Notes: generated by a model not told the origin, from the sequence alone. Shown: positions 35,036-54,772, numbered from the stretch's first letter. The stretch: DNA of 64,000 bases from Candidatus Hydrothermarchaeota archaeon (GCA_046760505.1 JBHIEG010000006.1:20924-84923), one strand, 5' to 3'. A program made the numbers and translations.

Positions 35036-36130
35036 TTAGGTTATCAGTTGTTTGAATACATTTATGAGGCTTCTGAGCCATCTTATCACGGCTGAACTAG
35101 GTTCCTTTTCGGGGGTTTCAGGTTTTTTAGTTTCTTTCACTTTAGGTATAGTTTTTTTCTCTAAAGGCTTCTCTTTAGTTTCAACTTCTTTAAATGAACC
35201 TACGGTAAAATTCAAGTAACTCGTTTTCAGCGTGTGCTTAAGGCCTTTTTCATCCCAGTAAGTTATTGTGGCTGGTTTTAATGAATATGTTCCGTTTTTA
35301 GATGCTTTAATATAATAAAAGAAGTATTTTTTCTGCTTAGATTTCAAAAAACCAGACCATGCTATTTTACCCCTTACAACCTCTAAGTTATCAGGCGGAT
35401 AGTTGTCTTGAGCGTATACAAAGGCGCTTCCATTACCTACATTATTTATTTCAAAATGAACATAGATCAATTTATCTTTTCTCGGGTTTTTCGGGAATAT
35501 AGTTCTGTTAAACTCCAATTTCACATTCGTTGGTTTTCTAAATACGACCATTAGATCTTTCTTGGTTGGAAACAACTCTCCTCTATCTAGCTTGGTTTCG
35601 TAGATTAAATCCGTATAACTTTCGTTCCAGATTACTTTGTTCGGCTCAGGATACAAATCATAGATACCTGCCCAATCTGGTAATCTTACAGTTATTTTTA
35701 AATTATCGATCGAGTACCCAAAAGCCTTAAATCTTGTATAAAATAAAACATTTTCTTCCCCTAAAGAGACCAGATCCGGAGTTCGGTACATTATATGGAT
35801 TTTGCGAGTATCTCCAAAGGTAAGGGGGTATCTCGGATATTTATTGTAAAGTAATTTTAGAACCGTAAAATTGCCCATGTGATAGATTACAGGATCCATT
35901 TTACCTTTATTATCTGAACAGTTGTAGATAAATGCAGAGGGACTTGGTAGTGTTAGATAGATAAAATCTAAAGACGCATTAAGTTCCTTTATTTTAACCG
36001 TGGTATTGATCTCTACCTTAGTTATACATGTCTTTCCGTTCGGCTCGAGCAGAATATTGTAGTCATAAAATACCTTTCCACAAGTAATTCCAACCATTAG
36101 AAGAACCAATAGGAATGGTAAGTACTTCAT
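35036..36130 (-). CDS. Secreted protein with BatD/DUF11-like Ig domain, co-directional with the pilin cluster
   Basis: Signal peptide; EINNVGNGSA, GTYSLKPATITYWD. Confidence 0.7.
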   Translation of the reverse strand: MKYLPFLLVLLMVGITCGKVFYDYNILLEPNGKTCITKVEINTTVKIKELNASLDFIYLTLPSPSAFIYNCSDNKGKMDPVIYHMGNFTVLKLLYNKYPRYPLTFGDTRKIHIMYRTPDLVSLGEENVLFYTRFKAFGYSIDNLKITVRLPDWAGIYDLYPEPNKVIWNESYTDLIYETKLDRGELFPTKKDLMVVFRKPTNVKLEFNRTIFPKNPRKDKLIYVHFEINNVGNGSAFVYAQDNYPPDNLEVVRGKIAWSGFLKSKQKKYFFYYIKASKNGTYSLKPATITYWDEKGLKHTLKTSYLNFTVGSFKEVETKEKPLEKKTIPKVKETKKPETPEKEPSSAVIRWLRSLINVFKQLIT

Positions 36131-36135
36131 CTTAC

Positions 36136-36567
36136 CTACCTTACCGTATAACTAGCGGTAGAACCTTCTTTGCATGATACAACTATGAGATCTCCCTCTG
36201 ATAGCGTAGTTGTTTTATTTGTGCCTATTTCTCCAGGTGTTAGTATGCCTCTTGTTTGGGCGTTTATAAGAGCCCCTCCAACGCCGTTTATGTATACCTT
36301 TACATCGGTTGCATTCTTCGTTCCGGAATTTTTTACCATTATTATGTTGTTCTTCGAGTTGTAATCGAGTATCATTAAAGTTATATCAGTAATCTTTGAC
36401 TGGGTTTCAGTATTATCCTGAATACCTGATTGGATATTAGTAGTATAAGAGGTGAGCCAAACATGAAAAACTCCTGCTATCGCTACAGTGATACCTATAA
36501 CCAGTATAGCCGCTACTATAGGGCTTACTCCCCTTTCTTCTCTTATTATTTTAACTTTACATTTCAT
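36136..36567 (-). CDS. Archaeal type IV pilin
   Basis: Class III signal ERG/VSPIVAAILVIGITVAIAG; KNSG motif. Confidence 0.9.
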   Translation of the reverse strand: MKCKVKIIREERGVSPIVAAILVIGITVAIAGVFHVWLTSYTTNIQSGIQDNTETQSKITDITLMILDYNSKNNIIMVKNSGTKNATDVKVYINGVGGALINAQTRGILTPGEIGTNKTTTLSEGDLIVVSCKEGSTASYTVR

Positions 36568-36576
36568 TTTACCACC

Positions 36577-37476
36577 CTAAAAGATATAGGAGAAGGAAAT
36601 AGGTCTTACCGTAACTTCATTGTTTTCAAGATTTGATGGATCGTTTAAATCTATGTTTAGCGTAAATCCTCCGTAAGGTCCTATGGAAGGAGAGTCAGAG
36701 TATTCTATACCGTAAAGGGTAGGTCTCCACGTTACCGAATTTGTATTTGGATCTACATTGAATGTTATCTGCGTTATTGTTATACCTGCTACGGCATCCG
36801 TTACGGTAATGGTAAAGGATCCGGAGTTGCTCGGAGTTGCTAGAGTATACTCGAAAACCCATTCTGTATAGGCGGTAACGGTTTCTCCATCGTTTAAAGT
36901 AGTAGATTTAGTCATTGCAAAATCAAAATCATGATCATCTGGATTAGGAGTCTTTATTGTCCATTGAGTATCCACATCTGTCTTTCCGGTCCTCCTTACG
37001 TCAGATAGGAATTTCTTCGTAACAACGGTTTCCTTGGAACTCACTATTATGGAATCGCCTTTGACTGGATAAAATACGGTGGTAACATTCCCCAATTCTA
37101 TAAAACCTGATTCTCCTTCTGCTAAGGTTGTTATTGTATTTCTATTTACGTCTTTTATGGGCAATTCTTTCGTTCCATCGCTCGTCACAAGAACTGATGT
37201 AAGGTTAGTCAACGTAATGGTGCCCTGATTGTATACGGTTACGATAGGGTAGGCGCCATCTTGAACAAGATCAGGCAACTTTAAGTCTATATCTGCTAGA
37301 GTAGTAATTTCCTGTCTCTCGATATCTTGCTGAATGCTTGCTTGCGTAGAGGTCTGTACCATTGATATCCATACAAATGCAATTCCTATGAGTGCTACAG
37401 TTATCATTAGCAATAAGAGAGTCGCTACTATGGGACTTACTCCCTTTTCGTCTTTTAACAGGTTTATTTTTTTCAT
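36577..37476 (-). CDS. Large type IV minor pilin/adhesin
   Basis: EKG/VSPIVATLLLLMITVALIG; Thr-rich C-terminal domain. Confidence 0.88.
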   Translation of the reverse strand: MKKINLLKDEKGVSPIVATLLLLMITVALIGIAFVWISMVQTSTQASIQQDIERQEITTLADIDLKLPDLVQDGAYPIVTVYNQGTITLTNLTSVLVTSDGTKELPIKDVNRNTITTLAEGESGFIELGNVTTVFYPVKGDSIIVSSKETVVTKKFLSDVRRTGKTDVDTQWTIKTPNPDDHDFDFAMTKSTTLNDGETVTAYTEWVFEYTLATPSNSGSFTITVTDAVAGITITQITFNVDPNTNSVTWRPTLYGIEYSDSPSIGPYGGFTLNIDLNDPSNLENNEVTVRPISFSYIF

Positions 37477-37487
37477 GTGATCACTTG

Positions 37488-38351
37488 TTATGGTGGATAA
37501 TACTTCAGGCAGATTCTGACGAGATCCCAACTGATATCATCAAGATTTCCTTCTTGGTTGACACCGATAGTAAGGTTATTATTCACCTGAGGAGTTGGCC
37601 ATGTGTTTAAACTCGTGCTGTTGAACCAGTATGTCACATTACTTATGGTGTTTCCGGCAAAACTCTTATTTTCATTTATAACCTCGTCAGAGTCCATGGC
37701 ATAAATGGAGTCTCGTCTGCCGTTTTTTTGCCAAGAAACTATGTGGAGTTCTACGTCAACCTCGGTAATGTTTGCACCGTTTGGAATGTTAAGGAAGTAT
37801 ACGTATGTTTTGGACAGGTTGCCACCGGTGGTATTGAATATTCCGGATTCAAGATCTCCGCTACACCAGATCGATAGTGCCGCGGATGGAGGAGAAGGCA
37901 CGACCACTGCTCTTACTTGAGGAGAGACATCCATGCGCCAGTCATCTTCCATACTGAACACGTAGATCATATCTCCTAGCGAAATGTTCCTGCTAAATTT
38001 TACATTTATTTCGTTTCCTACATATAATGCATCAAAATGAGCATCTTCATGGGAGAACCATTTAAAACTTGTCCAGTAGCAGTGTATAACAGATACATCA
38101 TGTAGGGTAACGGATCCGGTATTCTTTATACTTATGCTCTTGTTTCCGGGATAGACAGATGTGAATTCTATATCAGCGCTCCTTTCCATCTCCATTTTTT
38201 CGTTGTATCTTTTGCTCACCTCGCTTAATCTATAAGAGACATTTGAAATTTGTGTTACAGAAAATAAAACGGCAATCATAAGTAAGCCAAATATTATTAC
38301 GAATATGATCGGCTGATAAACCCCCTTCTCTTCGTAAAGCATTTTTTCCAC
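37488..38351 (-). CDS. Pilin-like protein
   Basis: EKG/VYQPIIFVIIFG hydrophobic N-terminus; IKNTG motif. Confidence 0.75.
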   Translation of the reverse strand: MEKMLYEEKGVYQPIIFVIIFGLLMIAVLFSVTQISNVSYRLSEVSKRYNEKMEMERSADIEFTSVYPGNKSISIKNTGSVTLHDVSVIHCYWTSFKWFSHEDAHFDALYVGNEINVKFSRNISLGDMIYVFSMEDDWRMDVSPQVRAVVVPSPPSAALSIWCSGDLESGIFNTTGGNLSKTYVYFLNIPNGANITEVDVELHIVSWQKNGRRDSIYAMDSDEVINENKSFAGNTISNVTYWFNSTSLNTWPTPQVNNNLTIGVNQEGNLDDISWDLVRICLKYYPP

Positions 38352-38505
38352 TGTAGGTTATCTCAGGAATGTTTTATATGTTTTTGTGGGCAGGATGATG
38401 CTGGCAGAATGAAAATACCTTTTCTCTTCGAATTCAATTATTAAGTGATGGAAGATTATTTCAAGCGCTCTGCATTAGTTTTAAATAATAAAAAGGAGAA
38501 AATGG

Positions 38506-38919
38506 TTACTTTACTTCTGCAGAAGCCATTGCACCTTCTTTACATGTTACGTCTACGACATCACCTGATTGTAACGTGTATCCAGCAGTCGGCATCTTGC
38601 CTATTCTGCTAGCATTCAAAGTGTCGAATTTGTAAGTAAAATTCCCATTTACATAAAGCCTCACATCGCTTGCGTTGGCGCTTCCTGTATTCATTACTTT
38701 AACGTAGTTTTTATTTTTCTTTGCCTCTAAGATGAGTAAGTTCACATCGAATTGCGCAGTGGCTCCGCTCACCTTAGCAGTTGTTCCCGTGGTAAAACTT
38801 GTCACCCAGACATAGGCTATTCCCGCTGCTACTACTGCTATAGCTATCAATAGGATTACTGCTATTACTGGCGAGACACCTTTCTCCTCCTTCCTTATCC
38901 CTTGGAACGTTTTTTTCAC
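38506..38919 (-). CDS. Archaeal type IV pilin (probable major pilin)
   Basis: EKG/VSPVIAVILLIAIAVVAAG; has its own upstream TATA-like element and downstream T-tract. Confidence 0.92.
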   Translation of the reverse strand: MKKTFQGIRKEEKGVSPVIAVILLIAIAVVAAGIAYVWVTSFTTGTTAKVSGATAQFDVNLLILEAKKNKNYVKVMNTGSANASDVRLYVNGNFTYKFDTLNASRIGKMPTAGYTLQSGDVVDVTCKEGAMASAEVK

Positions 38920-39062
38920 CCCCAGTAAATATTCTATTTTAATCTGTTATAGTAGTACTCATATTTTATAAGCGTTTTGTCAACAAAAACGATTTATTGT
39001 CAGACAAATTTGTGTCAGACGATTATCTGTCCTTTAAATCCATTAATATTTATGATAATTAA

Positions 39063-39509
39063 TTATATCTCAAGCAATCCATGCAACTCGCAAAACTCCT
39101 TTGAGCCAAAAACATCGATCAGATTTTTGACCTTCAGGAATTCGGAATCGTTGGATATAACACATTCCGAACCAGATTCTATTGCTGTTGCGGTTATTAT
39201 TGCATATGGAAGTCTTATCTTCTGCTTTGCTCTAATCTCACCTGCTCTGTCAGCAATTCTTACATTTGGCGGAAAGACTTCAAATTGAGGTGATGTAATT
39301 ATGTATGAGAAAAAAGCATTCTTCTCCTGAATCAAACCTTGCTGATTATAACCAGCCGAGAGCTCTGTTAGTACGATCGTGGACAATATCGCGGTGAGAG
39401 ATCCACCATCTATTGCATCCAATATCTTAGAAGAATAAGCCATGAACTCTGGCTCTTTGTTGATAACATTCAAAAATATATTTGTATCTACTGTAACCTT
39501 CATATCCAC
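39063..39509 (-). CDS. vapC: PIN-domain VapC toxin (one catalytic Asp replaced by Tyr)
   Basis: VDTN, TEL, LPYAII (normally LPDAII), SNDSEF. Confidence 0.88.
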   Translation of the reverse strand: MDMKVTVDTNIFLNVINKEPEFMAYSSKILDAIDGGSLTAILSTIVLTELSAGYNQQGLIQEKNAFFSYIITSPQFEVFPPNVRIADRAGEIRAKQKIRLPYAIITATAIESGSECVISNDSEFLKVKNLIDVFGSKEFCELHGLLEI

Positions 39510-39733
39510 TCTTCTCTAACCTTCTTTTGGAAATCTAGGCTACTCACACTCCATTTTTTTTGACTCATTAAAATACTCGATAGTTTTTCGGTGGTTTCTT
39601 TTCTTAACACTATTTTATCACCGTGTTTTTCAAATACTACTTTGTCTCCGGCCTTAAGTCCTAAGAGATCTCTCAGATCTTTTGGTAGTGTTATCTGTCC
39701 CTTTTTTGATAATTTAGAAATTGCAACAATCAT
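39500..39733 (-). CDS. AbrB/MazE-type antitoxin
   Basis: KLSKKGQITLPKDLRDLLGLKAGDKV; overlaps vapC. Confidence 0.9.
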   Translation of the reverse strand: MIVAISKLSKKGQITLPKDLRDLLGLKAGDKVVFEKHGDKIVLRKETTEKLSSILMSQKKWSVSSLDFQKKVREEWI

Positions 39734-39788
39734 CTAGGACACCTTACAAAATGGTAAGAATTTCCTTACTTATTAATCTTACTATTCT

Positions 39789-40601
39789 TTATACTAGAAA
39801 CTGAAATACGAGATATCCTATCAAGGTTAAAATCACGGAATGTTTTAATCCCGCGAGAATAGACCCTTCACCAACTTCTCCACATACCAAGCCCCCGAAT
39901 ACGGCTTGAATGAGGGCAAGATGATAGAATAGCGTTCTATATCCTTCAGGTGATATGGGCATCCTTAAGAATGCAAACGAGCCCATGCCCCCCATCGCTG
40001 GAACCATCGTTTTCTGAATAGCAACAACAATTGCGATGAATACAAAGAAGGTTAGATAAATAATGACTATGTATGGTCGCATAGCCCCTTTTCTCTCCTC
40101 CTCTATTTCCATTATCATCTGAGCATCCCTTGCCGCGGAGTCCAGTATATCAGATATGTCTCCTCCAGCTCTGTTGGCCTCTATTATTAGAGAGCATACG
40201 CGACTCACAATTCTGCTATTGCTCCTCTCAGAGAACTTCTCTAGCACCTCTTCAAATGGAACTCCCCAAGAAATTTGTGTGGCCATTTTCTTTACCTCGT
40301 CAGTTAAAGCGCCATAATCAGATTTTGCAAGTGTGTAGAAAGCCATTGAAAGGGGTACACCGGCACGGCTGGCTTCAACCATATCTCTTAAAAAATCAGG
40401 AAATCTTTTTTCTATTTTTCTGGTCCTTATATCCTCAAGTAGTTTTGCTAACATTAGTGGAAATCCAGAGAAAACTAGTGCGAGCACAAATACGGTATCA
40501 AATGTCTTTGTATCCCCATATAACCTATAACCTCCACTGACCAGTGCAACAAATATTAACATTCCTATCGCAACGAATGCGGCTATCTTTCTCCTTTTCA
40601 T
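39789..40601 (-). CDS. Type II/IV secretion system F-domain membrane protein (TadC/FlaJ-like)
   Basis: FPDFLRDM, DYGALT, ANRAGG, GLKHS. Confidence 0.9.
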   Translation of the reverse strand: MKRRKIAAFVAIGMLIFVALVSGGYRLYGDTKTFDTVFVLALVFSGFPLMLAKLLEDIRTRKIEKRFPDFLRDMVEASRAGVPLSMAFYTLAKSDYGALTDEVKKMATQISWGVPFEEVLEKFSERSNSRIVSRVCSLIIEANRAGGDISDILDSAARDAQMIMEIEEERKGAMRPYIVIIYLTFFVFIAIVVAIQKTMVPAMGGMGSFAFLRMPISPEGYRTLFYHLALIQAVFGGLVCGEVGEGSILAGLKHSVILTLIGYLVFQFLV

Positions 40602-40603
40602 GG

Positions 40604-41467
40604 TTACACCTTGGGCTTAAGAGAATCTACTATTATCAGAAACATTATGCATGCAATCGGAATGAAGAGATAGATCATCATCTGGAAAAATATATTCACC
40701 GGAATTTTTAAGGTCCAGCCACCCATCATAGTCATAACTGCTACCATAACTATGAGAAAAACCGGAGCAACAACAAATAAGGTTATGTATATCTCGGTCA
40801 TCAATCCAAGAGATTCCGTGAACTCTCTCTGTATTTTTCTATGCTCCCATGTGAGCTCTCTTGCAACTTCTCTTAAAAAAATCTTTAAATCACCACTAGA
40901 TTTTATCGTGTTATTTATTCCCATCAGTATCTCCTTTAGTCGAGAAGATGGACTTCTCTTGCAGGCATTCTCTAGTGCTGTAGATAGATCCTCTCCAAAT
41001 ATCTCGATATCTCTTGTAATGGTCTTGGCTTCTTCTGATACCTCTCCATACAACTCAGATAGACCTAAAGCCTTTAATATAACGGCTGGTGGCATTCCTG
41101 CACCAGCCATTATTGATATGTAGTTCACTGCATATGGTAAATTCATGTCAATGTCTAATCTTCTTTCATACGCCTTGAAAAATGGGTATATATAAACTAG
41201 ACCAGATATAAACAAAGAGATAAGAAAAGAAGCGACTAAAGTAAATCCGAGAGGAAAGTAACCAAGTTTTATAATGGTAAGGCGATAAAAAAATGCAAAA
41301 GAAATTAAGAAAGGTATGAAGAATGATAGAAAGAGGATTCCAAGATAACTGCCCAGCGTGGTTTTAATGTTTGATTCATGCAGAGATTCATGAAGTCCCT
41401 CAAAGAGATCATAAAAATGAGATTCAAAAAAGGAGCCAATTCTCCTGTACATTACATATACCGCCAA
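40604..41467 (-). CDS. Type II/IV secretion system F-domain membrane protein (TadC/FlaJ-like)
   Basis: LPYAVNY, YGEVSEE, SPS, SSGDL. Confidence 0.9.
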   Translation of the reverse strand: MAVYVMYRRIGSFFESHFYDLFEGLHESLHESNIKTTLGSYLGILFLSFFIPFLISFAFFYRLTIIKLGYFPLGFTLVASFLISLFISGLVYIYPFFKAYERRLDIDMNLPYAVNYISIMAGAGMPPAVILKALGLSELYGEVSEEAKTITRDIEIFGEDLSTALENACKRSPSSRLKEILMGINNTIKSSGDLKIFLREVARELTWEHRKIQREFTESLGLMTEIYITLFVVAPVFLIVMVAVMTMMGGWTLKIPVNIFFQMMIYLFIPIACIMFLIIVDSLKPKV

Positions 41468-43092
41468 ACGTCTTCTAAAACTGTTTCAGGAGACTTATAA
41501 TATGTTGCAACTACTCTGGCGACATCGGTAAATTTTCTTATTCCTCTATTCTTCATCCATTCTAGAATATTCTTCCTGTTTTCTAATTCTCTCCTCATCT
41601 CCTCCTCGCTTATGTTCATATCAGCCATGATTCTTTCCATCAGATACGATCTGCTCGAGACAAAGTGGTGTTTATCTGAGTGGGGATCCCATTTGAAGGT
41701 ATCATTTGTAATGAGTTCTTGAGTGTTTGGATCCAACCCCACTATTTCGGTGGTTCCCTTTATTCTTCGCACATATTTTCCTTTTACTCTGCTTCTAACC
41801 TGCATTACTATTATATCTAGGTTTTGCAATAGTACTCTTGGAATATTTATGGGTGGAGACTCCAATCTGTGGATAACTCCTTGGGGAGAATCTGCATGGA
41901 TTGTGCTAAGCGCCAGATGCCCTGTTGCCATTGCCTGGAAGAGTGTATTCGCCTCAACGCCTCTTACTTCTCCGACAATTATGTAATCAGGTCTTTGTCT
42001 TAAGGCAGTTTTCAGCAAATCGAACATATCTATTTCGCCGTATCTCCTTCCGTTGGTTAAGGCTGGTCCAAAGCCACTTCTCGTTACCTGGGGGATCCAG
42101 TTTGAGTGAGGTAAACTCAGCTCCGGAGTATCCTCTATGGTAACGATCTTTAACTCTGGTGGAATAAATAGAGATAAAGCGTTTAGGGTAGTAGTCTTCC
42201 CAGCAGCAATTCCTCCCGCTACTAGCACGGAGGCATCGTGCTCTATAGCAAGCCATAAATAGGCGAGAAGCTCCGGAGAAGCGGTTCCGAGTTCTATTAG
42301 ATCTGGGGGAGTCATTGGATCTCCCCTGAATTTCCTTATCGTAAATGTAGATCCCTTTCTAGAGATTTCCTTGCCATATGTTAACTGAACCCTGCTCCCG
42401 TCAGGAAGAGTTCCCTCAAGCAAAGGCTCAGCAACTGAGATATGCTTGCCACTTCTTTGTGCAATCTTGATGATGAAGGAATCCAACTCATCTGAGTCTG
42501 AAAACTGCAGGTTGGTTCTCATTGAGCCGAACATTCGATGATAAATGTAGATTGGAATGTTAGCGCCATCACAACTTATATCCTCAATATTAACGTCGTT
42601 CATCAAAGGCTCTATGATTTCTAAGCCAGCGAAGTCTCTAATGATGTAATACTTTATTTTTTCTCTGGAATTTTCGCTCAATCTGATTCTGTGTTTCTTT
42701 ACAACTTCATCTACCTTCTCGCATAGGTATTTGTCTAATTCTTCGACAGAAAAGAAATCCAGTTCCAGTTCGTCTATCAATGTCTCTTTAATCTTCTTCA
42801 GAGCTTTTTCTTCATCTTCATTTAACTCGGGTTGTTTGACCTCGTATATCAATTCGTGAGACTCTCTGTCGTAATGTATGTTTGCGAAGGCGTATGGTTC
42901 TATCAAGGGATAAGTGGTATCTATTTTTGTCATATAATTCTCATTTTTTGTTATTGCAGGTAAAACAGGCGCCTTCCTTTCCTTTTGTTCTTTTATTTGA
43001 TTGAGAAGATTATTTAGTTTACTCTTGCTTAATTCAGTTTCTTTCTTTTTTATTTTTTCTAAAATTTCCTGGGCTCTCTCTTCGATATCCAT
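41452..43092 (-). CDS. Type IV pilus assembly ATPase (FlaI/VirB11 family)
   Basis: IEDISCDG, GGIAAGKTT, LRQRPDYIIVGEVRG, ATGH, TIHA. Confidence 0.95.
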   Translation of the reverse strand: MDIEERAQEILEKIKKKETELSKSKLNNLLNQIKEQKERKAPVLPAITKNENYMTKIDTTYPLIEPYAFANIHYDRESHELIYEVKQPELNEDEEKALKKIKETLIDELELDFFSVEELDKYLCEKVDEVVKKHRIRLSENSREKIKYYIIRDFAGLEIIEPLMNDVNIEDISCDGANIPIYIYHRMFGSMRTNLQFSDSDELDSFIIKIAQRSGKHISVAEPLLEGTLPDGSRVQLTYGKEISRKGSTFTIRKFRGDPMTPPDLIELGTASPELLAYLWLAIEHDASVLVAGGIAAGKTTTLNALSLFIPPELKIVTIEDTPELSLPHSNWIPQVTRSGFGPALTNGRRYGEIDMFDLLKTALRQRPDYIIVGEVRGVEANTLFQAMATGHLALSTIHADSPQGVIHRLESPPINIPRVLLQNLDIIVMQVRSRVKGKYVRRIKGTTEIVGLDPNTQELITNDTFKWDPHSDKHHFVSSRSYLMERIMADMNISEEEMRRELENRKNILEWMKNRGIRKFTDVARVVATYYKSPETVLEDVWRYM

Positions 43093-43250
43093 ATGGGATA
43101 CTCCGTAGCCTAATGCTTCTCTTTGCTTAGAGTGTTGTCGATGATTGATTATATTTCTTTCGATTACAAATTAGTTTTCTAACCAGCATATTTGGACAAG
43201 GGAAAAATATTTTATCAGAAAGGGAACAATTTCTTTCTTGAGGTAACCTG

Positions 43251-44303: not shown

Positions 44304-44305
44304 AT

Positions 44306-44650
44306 TCATTCATACTCGATACTTTTGCTTTCCTTTATGAGTTCATACCAGTTTTTTAGCAGGACTATGAAAAGTATAATGAAGATGGATTCGCTCAGTT
44401 CGTATAGATAATAAGTCTCGAAGTGAAATAATTCTTTGAATGTGCCTATCGTTTCATGTAAGACGAAGATGACACCTATGAGAAAGATATATGACCATGT
44501 TTTACTCAAAAAACCTGCCTTTAAAAATGCCTTTGCCTTGAGCATATCAGGATCTAGGCTCTCAGATTCTTTTCTTATTATTACCAATATCGCTAAAACG
44601 ACCAAACCTATGATGAAATTTATGATTTCCAATATCGCTTCTGCATGCAT
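44306..44650 (-). CDS. Small three-TM membrane protein
   Basis: Three hydrophobic helices. Confidence 0.65.
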   Translation of the reverse strand: MHAEAILEIINFIIGLVVLAILVIIRKESESLDPDMLKAKAFLKAGFLSKTWSYIFLIGVIFVLHETIGTFKELFHFETYYLYELSESIFIILFIVLLKNWYELIKESKSIEYE

Positions 44651-46487: not shown

Positions 46488-46683
46488 TTTATCTCTTGAA
46501 GCTTATTTGTGCAGATCATTATAAGTGAGTTTTCATTTTGAAATTAAAGCGTGTTCTTTGAGTATTTATGTTTGAGAAATCTCATTTATAACCATACAAA
46601 TTAGTTACGCATTTGGTAAAATTTTTTACACGATTTTATCAAAAACCAAACTCTCTCAAAGAATGGAAAATCTTAATCTTAAG

Positions 46684-47349
46684 TCAAATCACTTTGATCA
46701 TTGAGGTTTCTATGCGATATCTAAATTTATCATTTACGAATCCCTTTAATAACAATTCTTCGCCTTTAAAATGCATTAATCCCTGCATGAGTTGCTGTAT
46801 AGCGTTTACTTCCTCTGGCTTGTGTATGCTTTCGTTCATGACGAAGAAGCATATTCCACCAACCGCCTTTATTCTTCCCGTGAAAACGTGTAGAAAACGA
46901 AATACTGGTTTGATGCTTGAGTACATGAGAAGCGTGGATACCGAGTCTAACACTACTCTTATTCTCTTTATCCCAGACTTGCGCCATAGATCTTCAATAT
47001 GATTGGACGTGCTAGCCAAAATCATCCCTAAATCAAGAGGTCCCGATACACAAGAGACATTTTCTATATCTCTGGGACAATTCTCATCAAATGTTAACGA
47101 ATAACAATCAACTATTCTCAAGTTTTCTAGTGAGGAGGAAAACCTGCTTATTTCTTCAACTACCTTCTTCGCGGTATCATTAGTTGATATGTAGATGACT
47201 CCTTCATTATTTTTAAGCGATGATCCGCAACATTGGTGACAGAATAGTTTGTGTCCTGAATATGCGTCTCCCAGGACCATTATCATGCATTCTGGCTTTA
47301 TTTTGACATCTATCCCCTCTAATCCAATGGAATATTCTTCATCTTTCAT
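46684..47349 (-). CDS. KaiC/RAD55-like protein with degenerate Walker A
   Basis: GDAYSGHK, IVDCYS, VLDSVSTLLMY. Confidence 0.8.
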   Translation of the reverse strand: MKDEEYSIGLEGIDVKIKPECMIMVLGDAYSGHKLFCHQCCGSSLKNNEGVIYISTNDTAKKVVEEISRFSSSLENLRIVDCYSLTFDENCPRDIENVSCVSGPLDLGMILASTSNHIEDLWRKSGIKRIRVVLDSVSTLLMYSSIKPVFRFLHVFTGRIKAVGGICFFVMNESIHKPEEVNAIQQLMQGLMHFKGEELLLKGFVNDKFRYRIETSMIKVI

Positions 47350-47639
47350 ACCAATCTTACCTTTAATATTCACTTAAAAATTTAAATCTTACGCAAAGAC
47401 GGTAAAAGTTCTTATTAACCTCTTGAGTCTCAATTTTTATGCAACTATAGCAGGTATATGTGCTTTCTTGCTACGGAGAACCGCAAATTTAGACTAGTCA
47501 TACTCTTTTTAAGAAATTTGGCAAGATTTCGATCACTTGCTTTATTTGAAGCTTAGATATTTATATTTTGAACAATCAAGGAACAAAAAATGTCAGTAGC
47601 CTAGGAAAATTTATTAAATAAAGTCAACAATTAGAGAAT

Positions 47640-49109
47640 ATGGTGAGTAAAAACAATCTAATTAAGCTGTTGGTCATATCAGTTGTTTTAGTTAACATTA
47701 CCGTAATTAGCGGTTGTGTTAAAGAAAAACCACCAACTGAAGAAGTCGTTGGGGAAAAACCCGCGGAAGAATTGTTAGAGGAAAAACCTAAAGAAGAAAT
47801 AACGCCTCCAACCACTCCTGTTCCGGAAACTCCTTCTGCTCCTGCACCTGCTCCATCGCCTAAAACAACTGCTCCTCCTGTAAAGAAAGGTCCTGAACCT
47901 CTCGAAATACCCTTCGAGGCATCACACTTCGGATTTATGCACCCAGAGAGGTCTTTATCTGAGGCAGCGGAGTTGAAAGTACACTGGGCAAGACCTCATC
48001 CAGGACCCTTTCTCTGGGATTCGATTGAGCCTGAAAAAGGTAGATTCGATTTTTCTTCTCCGGATAGAGAGGTGAGACTTCTCCAAGAATACGATTTCAC
48101 AATGATAGCCACAATCTGGCCCTATGCCGATTGGGATCAAGAGAGTTGTAGGAAAAGACTTTCATTTGAAAAAATCAGAGAGTTCAGGGAACTTGGCTAC
48201 TATCGTCAGATGCCCTGTGATATGGAAGCCTACAAGAATTTTGTAAAAACCGTAGTGGAGCGCTACGATGGCGATGGCATTGACGACATGCCGGGACTGA
48301 AGTATCCTGTGAAATACTGGGAAGTGATTAATGAACCGTCAATGAAAGAAGATTTGGTTTTCTTCTATGGCTCTCCAGAAGAGTACTTTGAAGTCTTGAA
48401 GGCGACCTACGAAGCAGTAAAAGAGGCAGATCCAGAAGCAAAAGTTCTTAACGGTGGAATCGCAGGCTTCGACTACGAGTCCAGAAATTTCTGGCAGAAG
48501 GTCATTGACCTCGGGGGGGCTAAATACTTTGATATATTCAACCATCATTCCATCAGCGGACCTGAAGATCTCCATGTCCCAGAGGCAAAGAGTTTCATGA
48601 GAAAAAACAATATAAGAAAGCCCCACTGGATACCTGAGGTAGAATTCAGTGCTTGGGGTCTTAAGAGGGAGAGGCTCACTCCTGAAGAATGGGCGAATGT
48701 AATCGTAAGGTCTTACATTTATTCCTTTGGCGAGGGAGTAGATAAGCTCTTCTATGTTGGGCTGGACGAAAGTCCAGGAGATCCTGAGAGCTGGTTATTA
48801 TACACTGAATCAGAAAAGAAACCCCATAGAGCAAAAGAGGGTCCAAAGAAAAGACAAGCCACCTTCTACGCGTTTAAGACCATGGTAGAAAAGATCGACT
48901 ATTTTACTGCGGTTAGAAAACTCGGGAAAGGGAAATACAAATTTACTGTAAAAGGAAAGCCAGTTTATGTTCTCTGGGCTCCGGGACCGGTACCTGCTGA
49001 GATAACTGGAACCGTCCTCGTAACAAACATTAGGGGTTATACCAGAAAAATTGATGCAACGAGCATAACACTAACAGAAAGCCCAATTTTTGTTGAGCCT
49101 CTCCATTGA
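47640..49109 (+). CDS. Lipoprotein glycoside hydrolase (clan GH-A, GH39-like)
   Basis: Lipobox ISGC; Pro/Thr linker; WEVINEP acid/base; WIPE nucleophile region; YDGDG. Confidence 0.78.
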   Translation: MVSKNNLIKLLVISVVLVNITVISGCVKEKPPTEEVVGEKPAEELLEEKPKEEITPPTTPVPETPSAPAPAPSPKTTAPPVKKGPEPLEIPFEASHFGFMHPERSLSEAAELKVHWARPHPGPFLWDSIEPEKGRFDFSSPDREVRLLQEYDFTMIATIWPYADWDQESCRKRLSFEKIREFRELGYYRQMPCDMEAYKNFVKTVVERYDGDGIDDMPGLKYPVKYWEVINEPSMKEDLVFFYGSPEEYFEVLKATYEAVKEADPEAKVLNGGIAGFDYESRNFWQKVIDLGGAKYFDIFNHHSISGPEDLHVPEAKSFMRKNNIRKPHWIPEVEFSAWGLKRERLTPEEWANVIVRSYIYSFGEGVDKLFYVGLDESPGDPESWLLYTESEKKPHRAKEGPKKRQATFYAFKTMVEKIDYFTAVRKLGKGKYKFTVKGKPVYVLWAPGPVPAEITGTVLVTNIRGYTRKIDATSITLTESPIFVEPLH

Positions 49110-49121
49110 AATTATCACTAT

Positions 49122-49859
49122 CTACTCTGCGTACTCCCCCTTAGGGTATACCACAAGACCTCGAGAAGTTATTTCTAGAGGATATCTTCTCATTCCATGC
49201 CTAGCTTCTCTCATTTTTCGAATCACAATACTTCTTCTCAGTTGTCCACCGCTCTCGGTTAGATACAGGAGTATTAAACCTCTCGTTATGAATTCTTCGA
49301 CTCCATATCTGCTCAATCTTCCCGTTCCTTCGATGGATTCGGATGTTAAAATTGAAGTGCAGTTGCTTTCAAGAAGTATGGTTGTAAATTTGTGGATTGC
49401 TCTTCTTATTTCTGCTTCGCTCTTCAACTGTAGACCTAAAGCAGGAATAGAGTCTATTGCAATTCTTTTTGCTCCAATTTCTTCTATTGTTTCGTAAATT
49501 TTAACCGCAAGTGCATCCAAATCGAATCCAGCTGGGGTAACTACTCTCTCTCTCGTGGGTATTCCGGCTCTTGCTAGAGAAGCATCAATAATAACAAATT
49601 TACCGTCTTCCTCTAATTTTTTAACGTCCCATCCGAATACCTGCATTTCCCTTCTTACATCATCAGGCCTCTCTTCAAGAGATACATATATACTTGGCTC
49701 ATTAAACTTAGATGCACCGGCATATAAAAACTGGAAGCAAAATAGGGTCTTTCCCGTACCTGGACCACCTGAAACTAATACAACCGTATTTCTCGGGAAA
49801 CCGCCATCCAATATCTCATCCAATCCCGGAATGCCTGATTTGACTCTATCTTCTCTCAA
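49122..49859 (-). CDS. KaiC-like ATPase (intact)
   Basis: SGIPGLDEILDGGFP, GGPGTGKT, SLEE, IDSI, RKMR. Confidence 0.93.
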   Translation of the reverse strand: MREDRVKSGIPGLDEILDGGFPRNTVVLVSGGPGTGKTLFCFQFLYAGASKFNEPSIYVSLEERPDDVRREMQVFGWDVKKLEEDGKFVIIDASLARAGIPTRERVVTPAGFDLDALAVKIYETIEEIGAKRIAIDSIPALGLQLKSEAEIRRAIHKFTTILLESNCTSILTSESIEGTGRLSRYGVEEFITRGLILLYLTESGGQLRRSIVIRKMREARHGMRRYPLEITSRGLVVYPKGEYAE

Positions 49860-49945
49860 ACCTTAACACCGAATTATTGTTTAATGTTTATATTTGTTCT
49901 TTGATGTTTATAATTCTTATTTTGATAAATTTTGGCTTACCTAAA

Positions 49946-50701
49946 CTACACTATTCTTGTGGCAGTATCTAATACAATACCCTTCTGGGTTATTCGATAG
50001 GGTACAATTTTGCTGCTCGGAACTATATGTAACATATTGGTTATGCATATACTTCTCTCAAGTTCATTGCCTCTCTCACGAACCCTTAATTCTATTATTC
50101 CATCTGAGACGTGCTCTATCGTACTCAATGTAGATTCATCATGCATTCCTTTTTCCAGTGATACGAGATAAACGCACTTGTATATTCTCACAAATGCCTT
50201 TATCCCTTCCAAAACCTCTTTTACCTCTTTCAATGAGTGCAGCCAGAGAATGTCAGAGAGGGAATCTATCACACCAATATGACTTCCCTTGGATGCGAGT
50301 TCATCATTCTCTAGAACCCCCAATCTCAGCATGTTTAAGATGCTTGTATCCCAGGATCTGGATACAGAACTCAAAGAAGGTGTTTTTTTGTGAGTTTCTC
50401 CAAGAACCCATTTTATTCTTGAAGAAAAAACATCTATGAATGTCAGATTGCCGGACTTTTCAAATTCTTCAACTTCCCATCCAAACCTACTCATGTTAGA
50501 TTTGATATCCTCTGAGGAACACCAAGTGACAAAATATATTCCTGATCCTCCTTGGGAGAGAGCGTTATAGAGAAACTGTTGACATATGATGGAATGACCG
50601 GTACCTGGATTACCAACTAGGAGAATAAGACTACCCTTGGGATATCCTCCTTCTAGAAGCTCATTTAACCCTGAAATTCCTGTATCTACGATATCAGTCA
50701 T
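49946..50701 (-). CDS. KaiC-like protein with degenerate Walker A
   Basis: TGISGLNELLEGGYP, GNPGTGHS (K to H), IDSL, lacks the EE motif. Confidence 0.88.
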   Translation of the reverse strand: MTDIVDTGISGLNELLEGGYPKGSLILLVGNPGTGHSIICQQFLYNALSQGGSGIYFVTWCSSEDIKSNMSRFGWEVEEFEKSGNLTFIDVFSSRIKWVLGETHKKTPSLSSVSRSWDTSILNMLRLGVLENDELASKGSHIGVIDSLSDILWLHSLKEVKEVLEGIKAFVRIYKCVYLVSLEKGMHDESTLSTIEHVSDGIIELRVRERGNELERSICITNMLHIVPSSKIVPYRITQKGIVLDTATRIV

Positions 50702-50844
50702 TTCTACAATTTTTACTATTAAACTCTCTGGTATAAAAATCTTCTATAGCGAGAATTCTGCAAAATTGTATAGGAAATATTTATGTTGTTGATTTTTTAT
50801 AGTTACGATGTCATTATACATTATACTAATAAGGAGGAGAAAAA

Positions 50845-52248
50845 ATGGCAAACATCCCTCAAGAGATAGTGAATATGTTAAACCTCTTGAGAGGATCCTC
50901 TCTAATGGTTAAGGGCGCTCCAGGAACTGGAAAGACCATATTCTCGCTCGAACTTCTGAAAGAACTCGGCGAGAACTACAGTGGAATATATGTCTCAACC
51001 CGAGTTCAACCAAGAGACCTGTATATAATGTTTCCTTGGTTAAATGGTGTTGTTTTTGAAGAAAATATAATAGATGCTTCCTGTTCTTTTGTATCCAAAT
51101 CTCAAGAATTAAATAAGGTTATACGCTATAGTAGCCAGCCTGATTTTGTTAAAGCAACATATGAAAAGATAGACGGACTTAAAAAACCAGCGTTATTAGT
51201 GATTGATAGTTGGGATGCAGTTTTCAGTGTGGTAAGAGAATCGAACGAAGAAGAACTCGCCAGAACAATGATAGACCTAGCAAAAGAGACCGAGACGAAT
51301 CTAATTATGGTCGTAGAAAAAGAAAAAAAGACAGGGTTAGATCACTTGGTAGACGGTATCGTATTATTAAAATGGGAAGAAAAAGATGGGGAGTGGTATA
51401 GAGAGATCTATCTAGATAAGTTGAGAGGAACTGAAATTCTCCAGCACAAATATCTTTTCACACTGAATGGAGGTAGATTCAGGCATTTTGAACCATTTAA
51501 ACGAAAATTTCCAAGAACTAGAAGAAAGTTTAAACCCATCATAGACTCGAGATCGCATTTCTCGTCTGGAAATAGATATTTAGACGAGATACTGGGTGGA
51601 GGCTTTCCAAGGGGAAGTTATGTTTTTCTTGAGACTGGAGAAAACGTGGATTACTATGCATTCGCGAATATTATCAACCTAACAGTTGCCAATTTTATTA
51701 CTCAGGGCAGAGGAGTGTTAGGAATTCCTAGGGTAGGAACAAGTCCGGGAATGATCAAGTATTTTGCACACCTCTTTGGTTTTGAAGATGGACTAAAAAG
51801 CCTTTTGAGGATGGTTAGGGAAGAAGATTCGTCAGGCAAAGAAACAGAAGATTTTGTTCTTCCCTATACTACTGAAACTCTGAAAGAAGATTTCAGGAAA
51901 ATTGATTCTGAAATTAGAAGATTGAGAGAGGAAACAGGGGAACCGGTGCTAAAAATAGTGGCTTATGATCACATGGAGTCTCTCTTTGGAGTGAAAGCAT
52001 TGCCAGAAATGATAAGTCTCGAAGCTCAAGAGATAGCGGACAGTAACGCATTAGCAATTGCTACCGGAACCCACAGCACGCCAGAAACCAATAAAAAACT
52101 TGCTGATACCGCTAATATCCATTTAAAAATTATAGAGTTAAATGGAGCCATGGTTCTTTTTGGATTAAAACCAAAAACAGGATTGTACAATATTGAGATT
52201 GATATTTCAAAAGGCTATCCAGATATAGTACTGACTCCGATCAGATGA
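50845..52248 (+). CDS. GvpD-like double KaiC-domain ATPase
   Basis: GAPGTGKT, YVSTRV, IDSWDA, DKLRG, YLFTLNGGRF; second domain SGNRYLDEILGGGF with degenerate P-loop. Confidence 0.85.
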   Translation: MANIPQEIVNMLNLLRGSSLMVKGAPGTGKTIFSLELLKELGENYSGIYVSTRVQPRDLYIMFPWLNGVVFEENIIDASCSFVSKSQELNKVIRYSSQPDFVKATYEKIDGLKKPALLVIDSWDAVFSVVRESNEEELARTMIDLAKETETNLIMVVEKEKKTGLDHLVDGIVLLKWEEKDGEWYREIYLDKLRGTEILQHKYLFTLNGGRFRHFEPFKRKFPRTRRKFKPIIDSRSHFSSGNRYLDEILGGGFPRGSYVFLETGENVDYYAFANIINLTVANFITQGRGVLGIPRVGTSPGMIKYFAHLFGFEDGLKSLLRMVREEDSSGKETEDFVLPYTTETLKEDFRKIDSEIRRLREETGEPVLKIVAYDHMESLFGVKALPEMISLEAQEIADSNALAIATGTHSTPETNKKLADTANIHLKIIELNGAMVLFGLKPKTGLYNIEIDISKGYPDIVLTPIR

Positions 52249-52252
52249 TCAC

Positions 52253-52636
52253 ATGGCTAAAAAAATACTACTTGTGGATGATGCCGAATTTATGCGCGAA
52301 ATGCTTGAGGAAATGTTGGATCCATCAGAGTACGAGATCATAGAGCATGTAACAACCGGAAGAGAGGCTATAAATACGTACAGAAAATTAATGGAGGAAG
52401 GAAATAGACCGGATATAGTTGCCATAGACATCGTTTTGCCTGAGATAGATGGTATTACAGTTATAAGGGAAATAAAAAAATTAGATCCCAATGCAAAAAT
52501 TTTTGTAATCAGTGCATTGAGCGCTCCTGGTCCAATAAATGAGTCTATTGAGGCTGGAGCCTCAGATTATATCATCAAGCCTTTTACAACTAAGAAATTA
52601 ATCAAAACACTAGAAAATCTGCTGAAAGAGAGGTAA
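52253..52636 (+). CDS. Stand-alone response regulator receiver (CheY-like)
   Basis: VDD, DIVLPEIDG, SA, YIIKPF. Confidence 0.93.
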   Translation: MAKKILLVDDAEFMREMLEEMLDPSEYEIIEHVTTGREAINTYRKLMEEGNRPDIVAIDIVLPEIDGITVIREIKKLDPNAKIFVISALSAPGPINESIEAGASDYIIKPFTTKKLIKTLENLLKER

Positions 52637-52641
52637 CCGGG

Positions 52642-54735
52642 ATGGATGAAGTTAGAAAGACGGGAATCGATATTTTAGGTGATGTCCCTTGGGGTACGCA
52701 TTTCTGTCAATTTTATCTTACAAAAGAAGATTTAATCGACATTTTGGTACCTTATTTCAAAACAGGATTGGAAAACAATGAATTCTGCATGTGGATTACC
52801 TCAGAGCCTTTAACAGTTGAGGAAGCAAAAGAATCATTAAAAAAGGTTGTAAAGAATCTAGAGGACTATATTAAAAAAGGACAGATAGAGATACTCCATT
52901 CGAGTGAGTGGTACACCAAATCAGGAAAATTCGAGCCTGAAAAGGTCTTGCAAGGTTGGGTTGATAAAGAGAATCAGGCTTTGAAAAAAGGATTTGATGG
53001 TCTGCGCCTTACGGGTAATACTTTTTGGCTTGAGAAAGAAGATTGGAAGGGTTTCACTGAGTATGAGTCGCTTGTAAACAATGTCATCGGCAAACATAAA
53101 ATGATTGCCATTTGTTCCTATTCTCTTGATAAGTGTGGGGCATCCGAAGTAATTGACGTGGTGAACAATCATCAATTTGCTCTCATTAAACGAGAGGGTA
53201 AGTGGGAACTTATTGAAAGCTCCGAACGTAAGAGAGCATGGGAAATGCTTCGAGAAACCGAAGAACGCTATAGAGAGCTTGTGGAACTCTGTCCTGATCC
53301 AATTGGCGTTCATAGCGAAGGGAAGCTCGTCTTTATAAACACCGCCGGGGCAAAACTTCTTGGAGCATCGAGTCCAGAGGAACTCATTGGAAAATCAATA
53401 ATGGATACCGTGCACCCGGATTATCGCAAAATCGTTAAGGAAAGAGTTCAAAAGATGATAGAAGAAGGAAAGAGAGTCCCATTAATCGAGGAAAAGTTCT
53501 TAAGGTTAGATGGTACTGAAGTAGATGTGGAAACCACCGCGATCCCTATCTCATATAAGGGCAAGCCAGCTGTCTTGGTTATCTCAAGAGACATTACAGA
53601 GCGAAAGCGGGTAGAGAAAGAACTTAAAAAACAGAAAGAATTCCTCGAATCGATATTCGACGCTGTTACCGATCACCTCACGGTAATCGATAGGAATTTC
53701 AAGATAGTCGCCATGAATAAGAGTCATGCCGCAAGTTTTAATAAAAAACCTGAAGATTTCATAGGAAAGTATTGCTATGAGGAGTTTCATGGAATTAAAC
53801 AAGTCTGTGAAGATTGTGTGGCAAAAGAATCTTTTGAAACTGGAAATCCATCCTATGGACTAAAATCTGGAATCAGAAAAGATGGCTCACGATACTGGGT
53901 TGAAATCAATACATTTCCAGTAAAAGATGAGAATGGACAAGTTAATTCAGTAATAGAATACGTTAAAGACATTACAGAAAAGAAAAAGGTTGAGGAAGAG
54001 CTAAAAGAATCCTATGAAAAATTACAGGTTGCCTACGATGAATTAAAAGAATTGGATAGGATTAAATCAGACTTCATTAATATTGCTTCTCATGAACTTA
54101 GATCTCCTCTATCTGCTATAATGGGATATCTAACTCTTATGGAAACCAAAACAGAACTCGACGAGAAACAAAAGCATTATTTAGATATTATATTTAGAAA
54201 TGCAAGTCTCTTGAACGAATTAATTTACAAGATACTGGAACTCTCACTCATAGAATCCGGGAAGATTGAACTTTTTAAAAGGAAATCATCAATTCTAAAG
54301 ATAACAAAGGAAATCATTGAGGACCTAGAAATAAAAGCCAAAGAAAAAGAACAGGAGATTACTCTAGAATTTTCAGAAAAAGTACCCATGATAAAAATCG
54401 ATAGAGAAAGAATAAAAGAGGTTTTGACCAATCTGATATCAAATGCCATTAAATTTACACCAGAAGGAGGAAAAATTAAAGTAAATATAGAAAATAGGAA
54501 AGAAGATGTACTCGTATCTGTAAGCGACAACGGACCAGGAATTTCGGAAGAGGACCAGAAAAGGATCTTCGATCGTTTCTATAAGGTCGAGAGCTCTCTT
54601 ACAAGAAGTGTAGAGGGCACAGGTCTTGGACTGTCGATCGCAAAAGGATTGGTAGAACTGCATGGAGGAAAAATCTGGGTTGAGAGCGAACTGGGAAAAG
54701 GAAGCACCTTTTACTTTACCATACCAAAAACATAA
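52642..54735 (+). CDS. Soluble sensor histidine kinase, MEDS-PAS-PAS-HisKA-HATPase
   Basis: WGTHFCQFY and LRLTGN (MEDS); two PAS/PAC; SHELRSPL, NLISNAIKFT, DNGPG, GTGLGL. Confidence 0.95.
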   Translation: MDEVRKTGIDILGDVPWGTHFCQFYLTKEDLIDILVPYFKTGLENNEFCMWITSEPLTVEEAKESLKKVVKNLEDYIKKGQIEILHSSEWYTKSGKFEPEKVLQGWVDKENQALKKGFDGLRLTGNTFWLEKEDWKGFTEYESLVNNVIGKHKMIAICSYSLDKCGASEVIDVVNNHQFALIKREGKWELIESSERKRAWEMLRETEERYRELVELCPDPIGVHSEGKLVFINTAGAKLLGASSPEELIGKSIMDTVHPDYRKIVKERVQKMIEEGKRVPLIEEKFLRLDGTEVDVETTAIPISYKGKPAVLVISRDITERKRVEKELKKQKEFLESIFDAVTDHLTVIDRNFKIVAMNKSHAASFNKKPEDFIGKYCYEEFHGIKQVCEDCVAKESFETGNPSYGLKSGIRKDGSRYWVEINTFPVKDENGQVNSVIEYVKDITEKKKVEEELKESYEKLQVAYDELKELDRIKSDFINIASHELRSPLSAIMGYLTLMETKTELDEKQKHYLDIIFRNASLLNELIYKILELSLIESGKIELFKRKSSILKITKEIIEDLEIKAKEKEQEITLEFSEKVPMIKIDRERIKEVLTNLISNAIKFTPEGGKIKVNIENRKEDVLVSVSDNGPGISEEDQKRIFDRFYKVESSLTRSVEGTGLGLSIAKGLVELHGGKIWVESELGKGSTFYFTIPKT

Positions 54736-54772
54736 TTTTGGTTTATAAGAGATCTACAGTTTCGAGAAAAGG

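Follow-up and report, generated by a model that had tools for sequence, protein, structure and literature searches.

Archaeal signalling beyond two-component systems and chemotaxis is poorly understood, and the idea that KaiC-like ATPases act as signalling hubs is still almost wholly computational. A locus of Candidatus Hydrothermarchaeota archaeon raises the question of whether such a hub might control a type IV pilus. The locus lies at positions 35036 to 54735 of a 64,000-nt stretch of DNA (GCA_046760505.1 JBHIEG010000006.1:20924-84923; the window), and ends of open reading frames (ORFs) coincide with both of these borders. Within it, a pilus operon neighbours genes for KaiC-like proteins, a small GTPase, a Roadblock protein, a receiver and a histidine kinase. 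A preliminary description of the sequence had proposed that these genes make up a pilus control circuit independent of chemotaxis. ORFs of the window were searched against Pfam and NCBIfam profiles, with ORFs of at least 90 aa scanned in the rest of the window. The genes of the region do not form a single operon but are spread, as a mosaic, over several transcription units. The most probable reading is that three of its genes, encoding a DUF7504 protein, a pseudo-KaiC::GTPase fusion and a Roadblock protein (the triad), provide a general-purpose switch within this mosaic island, and that any coupling to the pilus is at most lineage-specific.

The triad and its contexts in other genomes

All three triad genes are on the minus strand of the window. 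The DUF7504 protein (46684-47373; 73.6 bits) is a pseudo-KaiC with a degenerate Walker A motif. Next comes the fusion of a pseudo-KaiC to an Arf-like small GTPase (45273-46487), which is KaiC-like over residues 1 to about 225 and a GTPase over residues about 230-390, and then the Roadblock/LC7 gene (44951-45346; 52 bits in Pfam), whose 5' end is uncertain because of a 74-nt overlap between its ORF and the fusion gene. The N-terminal domain of the fusion aligns over its full length to the KaiC-like proteins PH0186 and PH0284. It has no Walker A motif (EPGVIGDVF occupies the site), and none was present in this domain across 67 aligned fusions. The GTPase half carries the motifs GPYNAGKS, TPGQ and NKQD; residues G237, G242, K243, T283-P284-G285-Q286 and N337-K338-D340 were invariant over the 67 sequences, and S244 was conserved in at least 90% of them. 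R259, directly ahead of the invariant G261-T262-T263, was also invariant in this sequence alignment and is a candidate for the position of the intrinsic arginine finger of MglA. The best 60 of 693 PDB matches of the GTPase half were Arf, Arl, Rab and Sec4 proteins, with no MglA among those 60. Likewise, the nearest solved structures of the Roadblock protein (5 solved matches) were archaeal Roadblock proteins and CvnB5, not MglB.

A modelled complex of the fusion with the DUF7504 protein reached a median interface score (ipSAE) of 0.73 (0.68, 0.73 and 0.79 in the separate runs), a mark attained by 58 of 80 solved complexes and by 2 of 110 mismatched pairs; among three controls, the highest score was 0.00. 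Contacts agreed between runs to at least 82%, and the predicted local distance difference test (pLDDT) value of the partner was at least 83. On the fusion, the modelled interface falls wholly in the N-terminal domain (residues 29-34, 57-66, 86-92, 130-137, 166-170 and 192-197), and it draws on near-invariant stretches of both families. The two pseudo-KaiC domains are thereby predicted to pair via a RecA-type subunit interface.

Species-representative genomes were scanned with both fusion paralogues of the organism, one from the window and one from a contig designated C44 (described below). This yielded 388 candidate stretches; a relative of the fusion was encoded in 322 of them, and 78 loci were obtained from the 80 best. 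Every protein encoded in the window or on C44 served as a query against the six-frame ORFs of these loci, whose flanks had medians of 9.1 kb on the upstream side and 7.8 kb on the downstream side and summed to 1048 kb. The records were labelled as Methanoperedens, ANME-2, Methanosarcinales, Methanocellales, Hydrothermarchaeota, Archaeoglobaceae and others, and the homologues of the fusion were at 49-57% identity. DUF7504 immediately preceded the fusion in 74 of the 78 loci, Roadblock immediately followed it in 74, and both were in place in 71. The triad, the one unit of the region with strong conservation, appears to be a self-contained G-protein switch.

The neighbours of the triad in these loci were mostly of another kind than pili. 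Recurrent ones were ribosomal protein S19e (40 loci), CysRS (30), a PDCD5-like protein (25), two ABC-2 transporter genes (21 and 20), YhbY and UPF0146 (16 each) and TruD (8). Because of these housekeeping neighbours, we regard the triad as a general-purpose switch and not as a dedicated pilus controller. Other flank genes encoded KaiC-like proteins (11), histidine kinases (9) and receivers (3); nine kinases were scanned, one of them from a pilus-side locus (see below), and all were of GAF-PAS types with no MEDS domain. An assembly ATPase of the pilus type (T2SSE) occurred in the flanks of a single locus, and TadC, pilins, the GvpD-like protein and the AAA_16-like gene of the window in none of the 78 within the available flanks. 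Five triad-bearing genomes, together about 10.2 Mb, contained 24 T2SSE matches (17 strong), so that about 1.7-2.5 T2SSE genes would be expected in the triad flanks by chance; the one observed is no more than chance. In Methanoperedens nitroreducens, 88 kb separate the triad from the nearest T2SSE match. The expectation that the fusion and Roadblock genes would be linked to pilus genes in related genomes was therefore largely not borne out.

A possible local link to pilus-type ATPases

Somewhat unlikely, in our judgement, is a dedicated circuit independent of chemotaxis, in which the MEDS-PAS kinase and the receiver would act through a KaiC hub on the GTPase and Roadblock proteins, and these on the adjacent pilus ATPase, comparable to the control of Myxococcus type IV pili by MglA/MglB and of ArlI by ArlH. 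It is favoured by the layout of the window itself, where the signalling genes adjoin the pilus operon, and by the complete absence of CheW matches from the genome. The ATPase in question is of the ArlI/PilB type (T2SSE, 546 aa; 41452-43092, minus strand; PF00437 124.9 bits; Walker A GGIAAGKT), and the presence of this gene and a TadC pair beside KaiC and GTPase genes, as first described, agrees with both Pfam and NCBIfam. The orientation of the genes puts the triad on a different transcript from the pilus operon, which counts against such a circuit.

A second locus of this sort is found on the 10.3-kb contig C44 (L001, 1-10339), which carries a second fusion, 36% identical to that of the window. 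The order of its genes is KaiC-MinD-T2SSE, two small membrane proteins, a 158-aa protein with no family match, a small GTPase, a V4R-like protein, Roadblock, a GAF-PAS-V4R protein, the fusion, two KaiC genes and DUF835. A third case comes from another Hydrothermarchaeota locus, L022, where the triad is continued by several small multi-pass membrane proteins, V4R and two MetOD1 genes, with a divergent KaiC gene upstream. Neither TadC nor pilins were present in the available DNA of L022 or of the short contig C44, which again speaks against a dedicated pilus circuit. Moreover, the L022 ATPase belongs to the clade of the ATPases on C5, C32 and C44 (44-48% identity), versus 36.5% to the window ATPase, and the window ATPase shares 36.5-39% identity with the C44/L022 type. 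The three juxtapositions of T2SSE and fusion thus involve different ATPase clades and are therefore independent.

On the pilus side, homologues of the window ATPase (40-53% identity) were sought in a sample of 30 other archaeal genomes; those found were mostly in small genomes, and 20 loci around them were fetched. The ATPase-TadC core recurs in them, with both TadC halves found in 15. A KaiC-like gene was embedded or adjacent in six (L098, L099, L102, L105, L108 and L114), and T2SSE-KaiC-TadC-TadC operons are present among the 20. This supports a tie between KaiC proteins and pili, as does a third ATPase of the organism itself, which sits in a KaiC-TackOD1/HTH-T2SSE-TadC-TadC operon on contig C5 (L119), with the KaiC and TackOD1-HTH genes (389-2192) directly ahead of T2SSE. 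The same contig carries a separate DUF2226-Roadblock-V4R unit (10725-12534), about 10 kb from the T2SSE operon. Against a dedicated circuit, Roadblock, fusion and small GTPase genes were found in none of the 20 pilus-side loci, and the kinases near the triad elsewhere are of the GAF-PAS and not the MEDS type. Furthermore, the active KaiC-like ATPase of the window (KaiC_a; 49122-49859, minus strand; 260.1 bits; Walker A GGPGTGKT) stands apart from the pilus-embedded KaiC proteins in a poorly resolved tree of 36 KaiC-like domains (5 of 33 inner branches starred), where it grouped weakly with the KaiC beside the L022 T2SSE gene (Shimodaira-Hasegawa-like approximate likelihood ratio test, SH-aLRT, 80).

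That KaiC and Roadblock genes associate with archaeal pilus loci has been published before. According to Makarova, Koonin and Albers (2016, PMC4858521), KaiC arCOGs are strongly associated, and at times co-transcribed, with archaeal type IV pilus loci, and the Roadblock arCOG02603 is "often encoded in a variety of T4P loci". In Haloferax, the KaiC-like CirA, encoded beside the arl genes, represses motility (PMC10983859). Both lend some support to a pilus-directed circuit. Our literature search, which did not extend to the likeliest source (Makarova et al. 2017), returned no account of the pseudo-KaiC::GTPase fusion or of the triad. In the literature that was searched, there was likewise none that combined KaiC with MglA/MglB, or with a small GTPase and Roadblock or V4R, in archaea.

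Several observations weigh against the reading of the triad as a general-purpose switch with at most a lineage-specific pilus role. The flanks were limited, as only 34 of the 78 triad loci had at least 5 kb on both sides. In the genome under study, a T2SSE ATPase is encoded 2.2 kb from one fusion module and 4.2 kb from the other; a naive estimate puts the chance that both fusions would fall within 5 kb of one of the 7 T2SSE matches at about 8e-4, a figure obtained with n = 2 and a distance picked afterwards, among accessory genes that are prone to cluster. In L022 (3212-11554), T2SSE, DUF7504, fusion and Roadblock abut on one strand. The sister species lacks both fusions together with both adjoining T2SSE ATPases (those of the window and of C44). 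The two-fold placement, this joint absence and L022 speak for a genuine functional connection in some lineages at least. In addition, the runs listed for positions 40000-49900 of the window comprised four DNA runs and no RNA, and the predicted complex may lean on solved KaiC/RadA homo-oligomers; the model therefore shows likeness of an interface rather than binding. On present evidence the pilus link is a local juxtaposition. The proposed control circuit is thus supported in part, with KaiC genes near 6 of 20 pilus ATPase loci and both fusions beside T2SSE genes, while the housekeeping context and the chance-level frequency of T2SSE genes around the triad count against it.

The GTDB phylum of the genome holds two species representatives only, both in a single genus; the sister genome is 100% complete by markers. 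It keeps orthologues of the C5 and C32 ATPases (89-90%) as well as a C38-like one. Its flanks are syntenic with those of the island from PolB to orf153 and over PAC2-PheRS (84% amino-acid identity for PolB and PheRS), and other genes abut both syntenic flanks. At the DNA level, the complete region had only six short matches in the sister genome, of 55-272 bases, and the comparison was therefore made at the protein level. A metagenome scan with the C44-type fusion gave two weak partial relatives (26-28%, in the GTPase part) and no orthologous locus, and therefore provided no test of the context of that fusion. Among 101 genomes from the class of Methanoperedens, five had matches to the C44 fusion, all at 32-37% identity; these were rejected as C44-type fusions, as they are window-type triad genes.

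A third explanation, pure juxtaposition, holds that unrelated accessory genes have accumulated at a variable spot beside a tRNA gene and that the signalling proteins have their targets elsewhere. We consider it quite improbable. It fits with the variation of the region relative to the sister genome and with a tRNA-Arg(GCG) gene (54771-54844, minus strand) that lies 36 bases past the kinase stop, at the right border of the differing region. Unrelated inserts occur among the modules (the VapBC-like pair, a glycoside-hydrolase-like gene and an orphan AAA_16-like gene), and the triad is normally found in a housekeeping context. The genome (2.17 Mb) has 31 KaiC-family matches besides 7 T2SSE (5 strong) and 5 Roadblock matches, and a KaiC gene near an arbitrary locus is not rare with such a number. 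What argues against pure juxtaposition is that the same arrangement is found twice in this genome and once in L022, and that neither an integrase nor an att-like repeat was found in the region, which is uniform in guanine plus cytosine content.

Two further readings were rejected: that of a mobile element, because no integrase family was found and because 30001-54700 holds no tRNA-Arg-derived repeat longer than 11 bases, and that of anti-phage defence, because a comparison of 16 proteins with PADLOC models gave nothing beyond weak partial matches (BrxD 20.9 bits, mad8 about 18 bits).

The pilus operon and the other modules

The pilus operon is encoded on the minus strand. Downstream of the ATPase gene are two TadC/ArlJ-like platform genes (40604-41467 and 39789-40601; T2SSF 54.5 and 76.9 bits), which correspond to the N and C halves of ArlJ in NCBIfam and thus amount to a split ArlJ. 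Of the four pilins first described, three were recovered as class III signal peptide prepilins above the TIGR02537 cut-off: one of 137 aa (38506-38919; Pilin_N 32.3 bits, TIGR02537 47.1 bits), a large pilin-like protein of 317 aa (36577-37530; TIGR02537 38 bits; motif DEKG|VSPIV) and one of 143 aa (36136-36567; TIGR02537 32 bits, cut-off 20; N-terminus REERG|VSPIV; Pilin_N and Flp1_like under cut-off). The fourth, a 287-aa protein (37488-38351), had no Pfam or NCBIfam match and is pilin-like by its N-terminal motif alone (EEKG|VYQPIIFVII). The operon closes with a secreted 364-aa protein (35036-36130) that has a hydrophobic N-terminus and a BatD/TRAP-beta-like beta-sandwich (borderline matches, TRAP_beta 23.2 and BatD 22.7 bits), possibly a pilus-associated adhesin. 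Two Peptidase_A24 matches over cut-off, on C2 and C17, represent prepilin peptidases encoded outside the window.

By its gene content the operon encodes an adhesion-type archaeal type IV pilus system. It does not qualify as an archaellum, since the ATPase scored 450.8 bits against the FlaI model, under the NCBIfam equivalog cut-off of 550, and neither archaellins nor ArlC-H/X accessory genes were found in the window. Family scans also agreed with the earlier statement that the window lacks chemotaxis and kaiB genes: che, methyl-accepting chemotaxis protein, KaiB and archaellum accessory families had no match in the rest-of-window ORFs.

Between tadC and the pilin genes sits a VapBC-like toxin-antitoxin pair (PIN, 39063-39509, 65.6 bits; AbrB/MazE, 39500-39733, MazE_antitoxin 50.5 bits; both on the minus strand). 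This pair, the glycoside-hydrolase-like gene, the 114-aa membrane protein and the 364-aa secreted protein had gone unmentioned in the preliminary description. In the intergenic stretch beside the pair (39731-39772), several small indels were seen in three of the four DNA runs. The 137-aa pilin gene was polymorphic in the population, with contig joints or breaks at 38474-38758, skips of 94 and 201 bases, indels and loose ends, a pattern that would fit diversifying selection on a surface filament.

An orphan P-loop NTPase gene of AAA_16/ATPase_2-like type (43251-44303, plus strand) is divergent from the pilus operon, as first described, and convergent with the triad operon; all of its Pfam matches were under cut-off. 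No homologue was found in the 78 triad and 20 pilus-side loci, and the genome holds no paralogue. On the triad side, a 114-aa membrane protein is encoded downstream of Roadblock (44306-44650, minus strand). It belongs to a family of about 115 aa with a shared motif (D..LLKA..FL...W.Y; 25-28% identity) that accompanies the triad in a few lineages, after Roadblock in L014 (two copies, 5555-6263) and ahead of the fusion in L023 (9595-9951). With the small membrane proteins encoded in L022 and on C44 it shared 13-17% identity, at which homology is not established. In the spacer between this gene and Roadblock (44732-44822), a variant present in three runs swaps 89 bases for TAAT; its depth was about 9.5 against about 33 (about 20 in X3).

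The preliminary description had listed a roadblock gene, a KaiC-GTPase fusion and three single KaiC-like genes, and Pfam confirmed all of them. Besides the DUF7504 protein and KaiC_a, the single KaiC-like proteins include KaiC_b (49946-50701, minus strand; 135.6 bits), in which the Walker A lysine is replaced by histidine (GNPGTGHS). Pairs of an active and a degenerate KaiC also occur on C10 and C44. The cluster is split by a 489-aa glycoside-hydrolase-like gene (47640-49109, plus strand; Glyco_hydro_42 23.0 bits, cut-off 21; GH39 21.6 bits). None of these are bona fide clock KaiC proteins, as the KaiC-like genes are single-domain and KaiB is absent above cut-off genome-wide. KaiC_a (43.1 bits), KaiC_b (77.5 bits) and the GvpD-like protein (20.8 bits) remained below the ArlH model cut-off of 215 bits.

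The last module is a plus-strand operon (50845-54735) for a GvpD-like ATPase, a receiver and a kinase. The GvpD-like protein (50845-52248; GvpD_P-loop 65.5 bits, cut-off 24; GvpD_bR2 60.8 bits, cut-off 27.9) had been read as a double KaiC; its likeness to GvpD and the KaiC/P-loop nature of its first half held, and the second half proved to be GvpD_bR2. Together with KaiC_a, it is the only KaiC-like gene product of the window with an intact Walker A motif (GAPGTGKT). GvpD-like paralogues are present on C10, C1, C3 and C16, and on C10 a minus-strand KaiC is again paired with a plus-strand GvpD-like gene. There (L093, 7155-8718), an FtsZ-family gene is followed at once by a small GTPase gene, flanked by the KaiC|GvpD-like pair and a KaiC pair.

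The receiver is a single-domain CheY-like protein (52253-52636; 85.3 bits; CheY_Halo 96 bits, under the cut-off of 200), and the kinase has a MEDS-PAS-PAS-HisKA-HATPase architecture (52642-54735); both had been correctly named at first and were recovered with Pfam. With the kinase as query, the sole full-length match in the whole genome was itself, and two partial matches lay elsewhere at contig ends or in fragments. The GvpD-REC-MEDS kinase arrangement was not found in the sister genome. Among 30 loci from the class of Methanoperedens, a GvpD-like gene was followed by a gene for a REC protein in 12. In these 12 genomes (L120-L131), the GvpD-like orthologue is followed by a receiver protein of about 360 aa and then by a second receiver.

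The island is flanked by housekeeping genes, with PolB, HAD and CBS on one side and PAC2, PheRS and others on the opposite side. The window also encodes an operon for carbon monoxide dehydrogenase/acetyl-CoA synthase (CODH/ACS; Cdh) and a multihaem cytochrome c (3871-11740 and 21675-22835), a thermosome subunit and transcription factor B (TFB). Contigs from the four DNA runs, all of one hydrothermal-vent study and not independent of the source sample, covered the region at even depth, and single contig pieces bridge 38774-44732 and 44828-52792; a chimeric assembly is therefore unlikely.

A possible mechanism and its known counterparts

These data suggest a species-specific, accessory island that would be built of four independent modules. 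The first would be the adhesion-type pilus operon (ArlI-like ATPase, split TadC, three or four prepilins and the secreted beta-sandwich protein) with its inserted VapBC-like pair; the second, the triad followed by the small membrane protein; the third, the pair of KaiC-like genes, one presumably active and one degenerate; and the fourth, the GvpD-like ATPase with the receiver and the MEDS-PAS kinase. Within the triad, Roadblock most likely acts on the GTPase of the fusion as MglB acts on MglA. The pseudo-KaiC pair may dock on active KaiC-like ATPases, and the MEDS domain of the kinase could do the same, which would leave the pilus ATPase as a candidate output. The signalling path that would lead from the kinase to the motor by way of KaiC and the GTPase is one that we infer. 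In this lineage, which lacks chemotaxis genes and has hardly any further two-component systems, the triad stands twice beside pilus-type ATPases. It may therefore plausibly govern where pili are placed or how they are assembled as a local output, albeit an unproven one.

The triad offers the KaiC-hub idea a compact testable unit, composed of a predicted pseudo-KaiC pair, an Arf-like GTPase with intact motifs and a Roadblock protein, and it is relevant to how Arf-type GTPase/Roadblock regulation arose. The boldest possibility is that, in a deep-branching vent archaeon without chemotaxis, KaiC-tethered switches of Arf-like GTPase and Roadblock were recruited twice to pilus-type ATPases and set when or where pili form, fed by the MEDS-PAS kinase, as a counterpart of MglA/MglB on a pseudo-KaiC scaffold. 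We hold this to be unlikely. If true in this lineage, the pilus link would be the first example from archaea of a type IV pilus under G-protein control.

A close parallel is with MglA/MglB of Myxococcus xanthus and Thermus thermophilus, where the gene for a small GTPase of the Ras superfamily likewise lies beside a Roadblock/LC7 gene. In both systems the G1 P-loop and the G4 NKxD motif are present, and G3 lacks the usual aspartate (TPGQ here). A G3 motif of the TxxGQ form is a mark of MglA. PMC4316618 backs this in part; it also states that the MglA/MglB switch governs type IV pili in Myxococcus and that the archaeal small-GTPase group is nearest to Arf/Sar, with which the matches of the window GTPase agree. 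The triad differs from MglA/MglB in that its GTPase is Arf-like and fused to a pseudo-KaiC, and in that a second pseudo-KaiC accompanies it. No RomR or RomX was recognised here, and a conserved pilus linkage is absent from the 78 loci.

Another likeness is to ArlH (FlaH) and ArlI, as single-domain KaiC-like genes are found near an ArlI-like ATPase. In contrast to that system, no KaiC gene lies inside the pilus operon of the window, which also has no archaellins or ArlC-G/X. The Streptomyces conservon (CvnA-D) similarly combines a kinase, Roadblock and a small GTPase, there as one signalling complex (PMC4316618); it is bacterial, membrane-associated and without KaiC-like parts, whereas the kinase of the window is encoded 5 kb away in another operon. 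The GvpD-like protein shares with haloarchaeal GvpD a P-loop domain and basic region 2, both above Pfam cut-offs. It differs in that gas-vesicle (Gvp) families are absent from the window and that a receiver protein follows it, here and in the 12 of 30 related loci. Finally, the island resembles the KaiC-centred signalling networks proposed for archaea by Makarova, Galperin and Koonin (2017), as citing papers describe them, in that it brings together active KaiC-like ATPases, inactivated KaiC-like domains (MEDS and DUF835/DUF7504-type), PAS/GAF sensors, kinases and receivers; MEDS and DUF835 are both given as inactivated KaiC domains by Galperin et al. (2018, PMC5847659).

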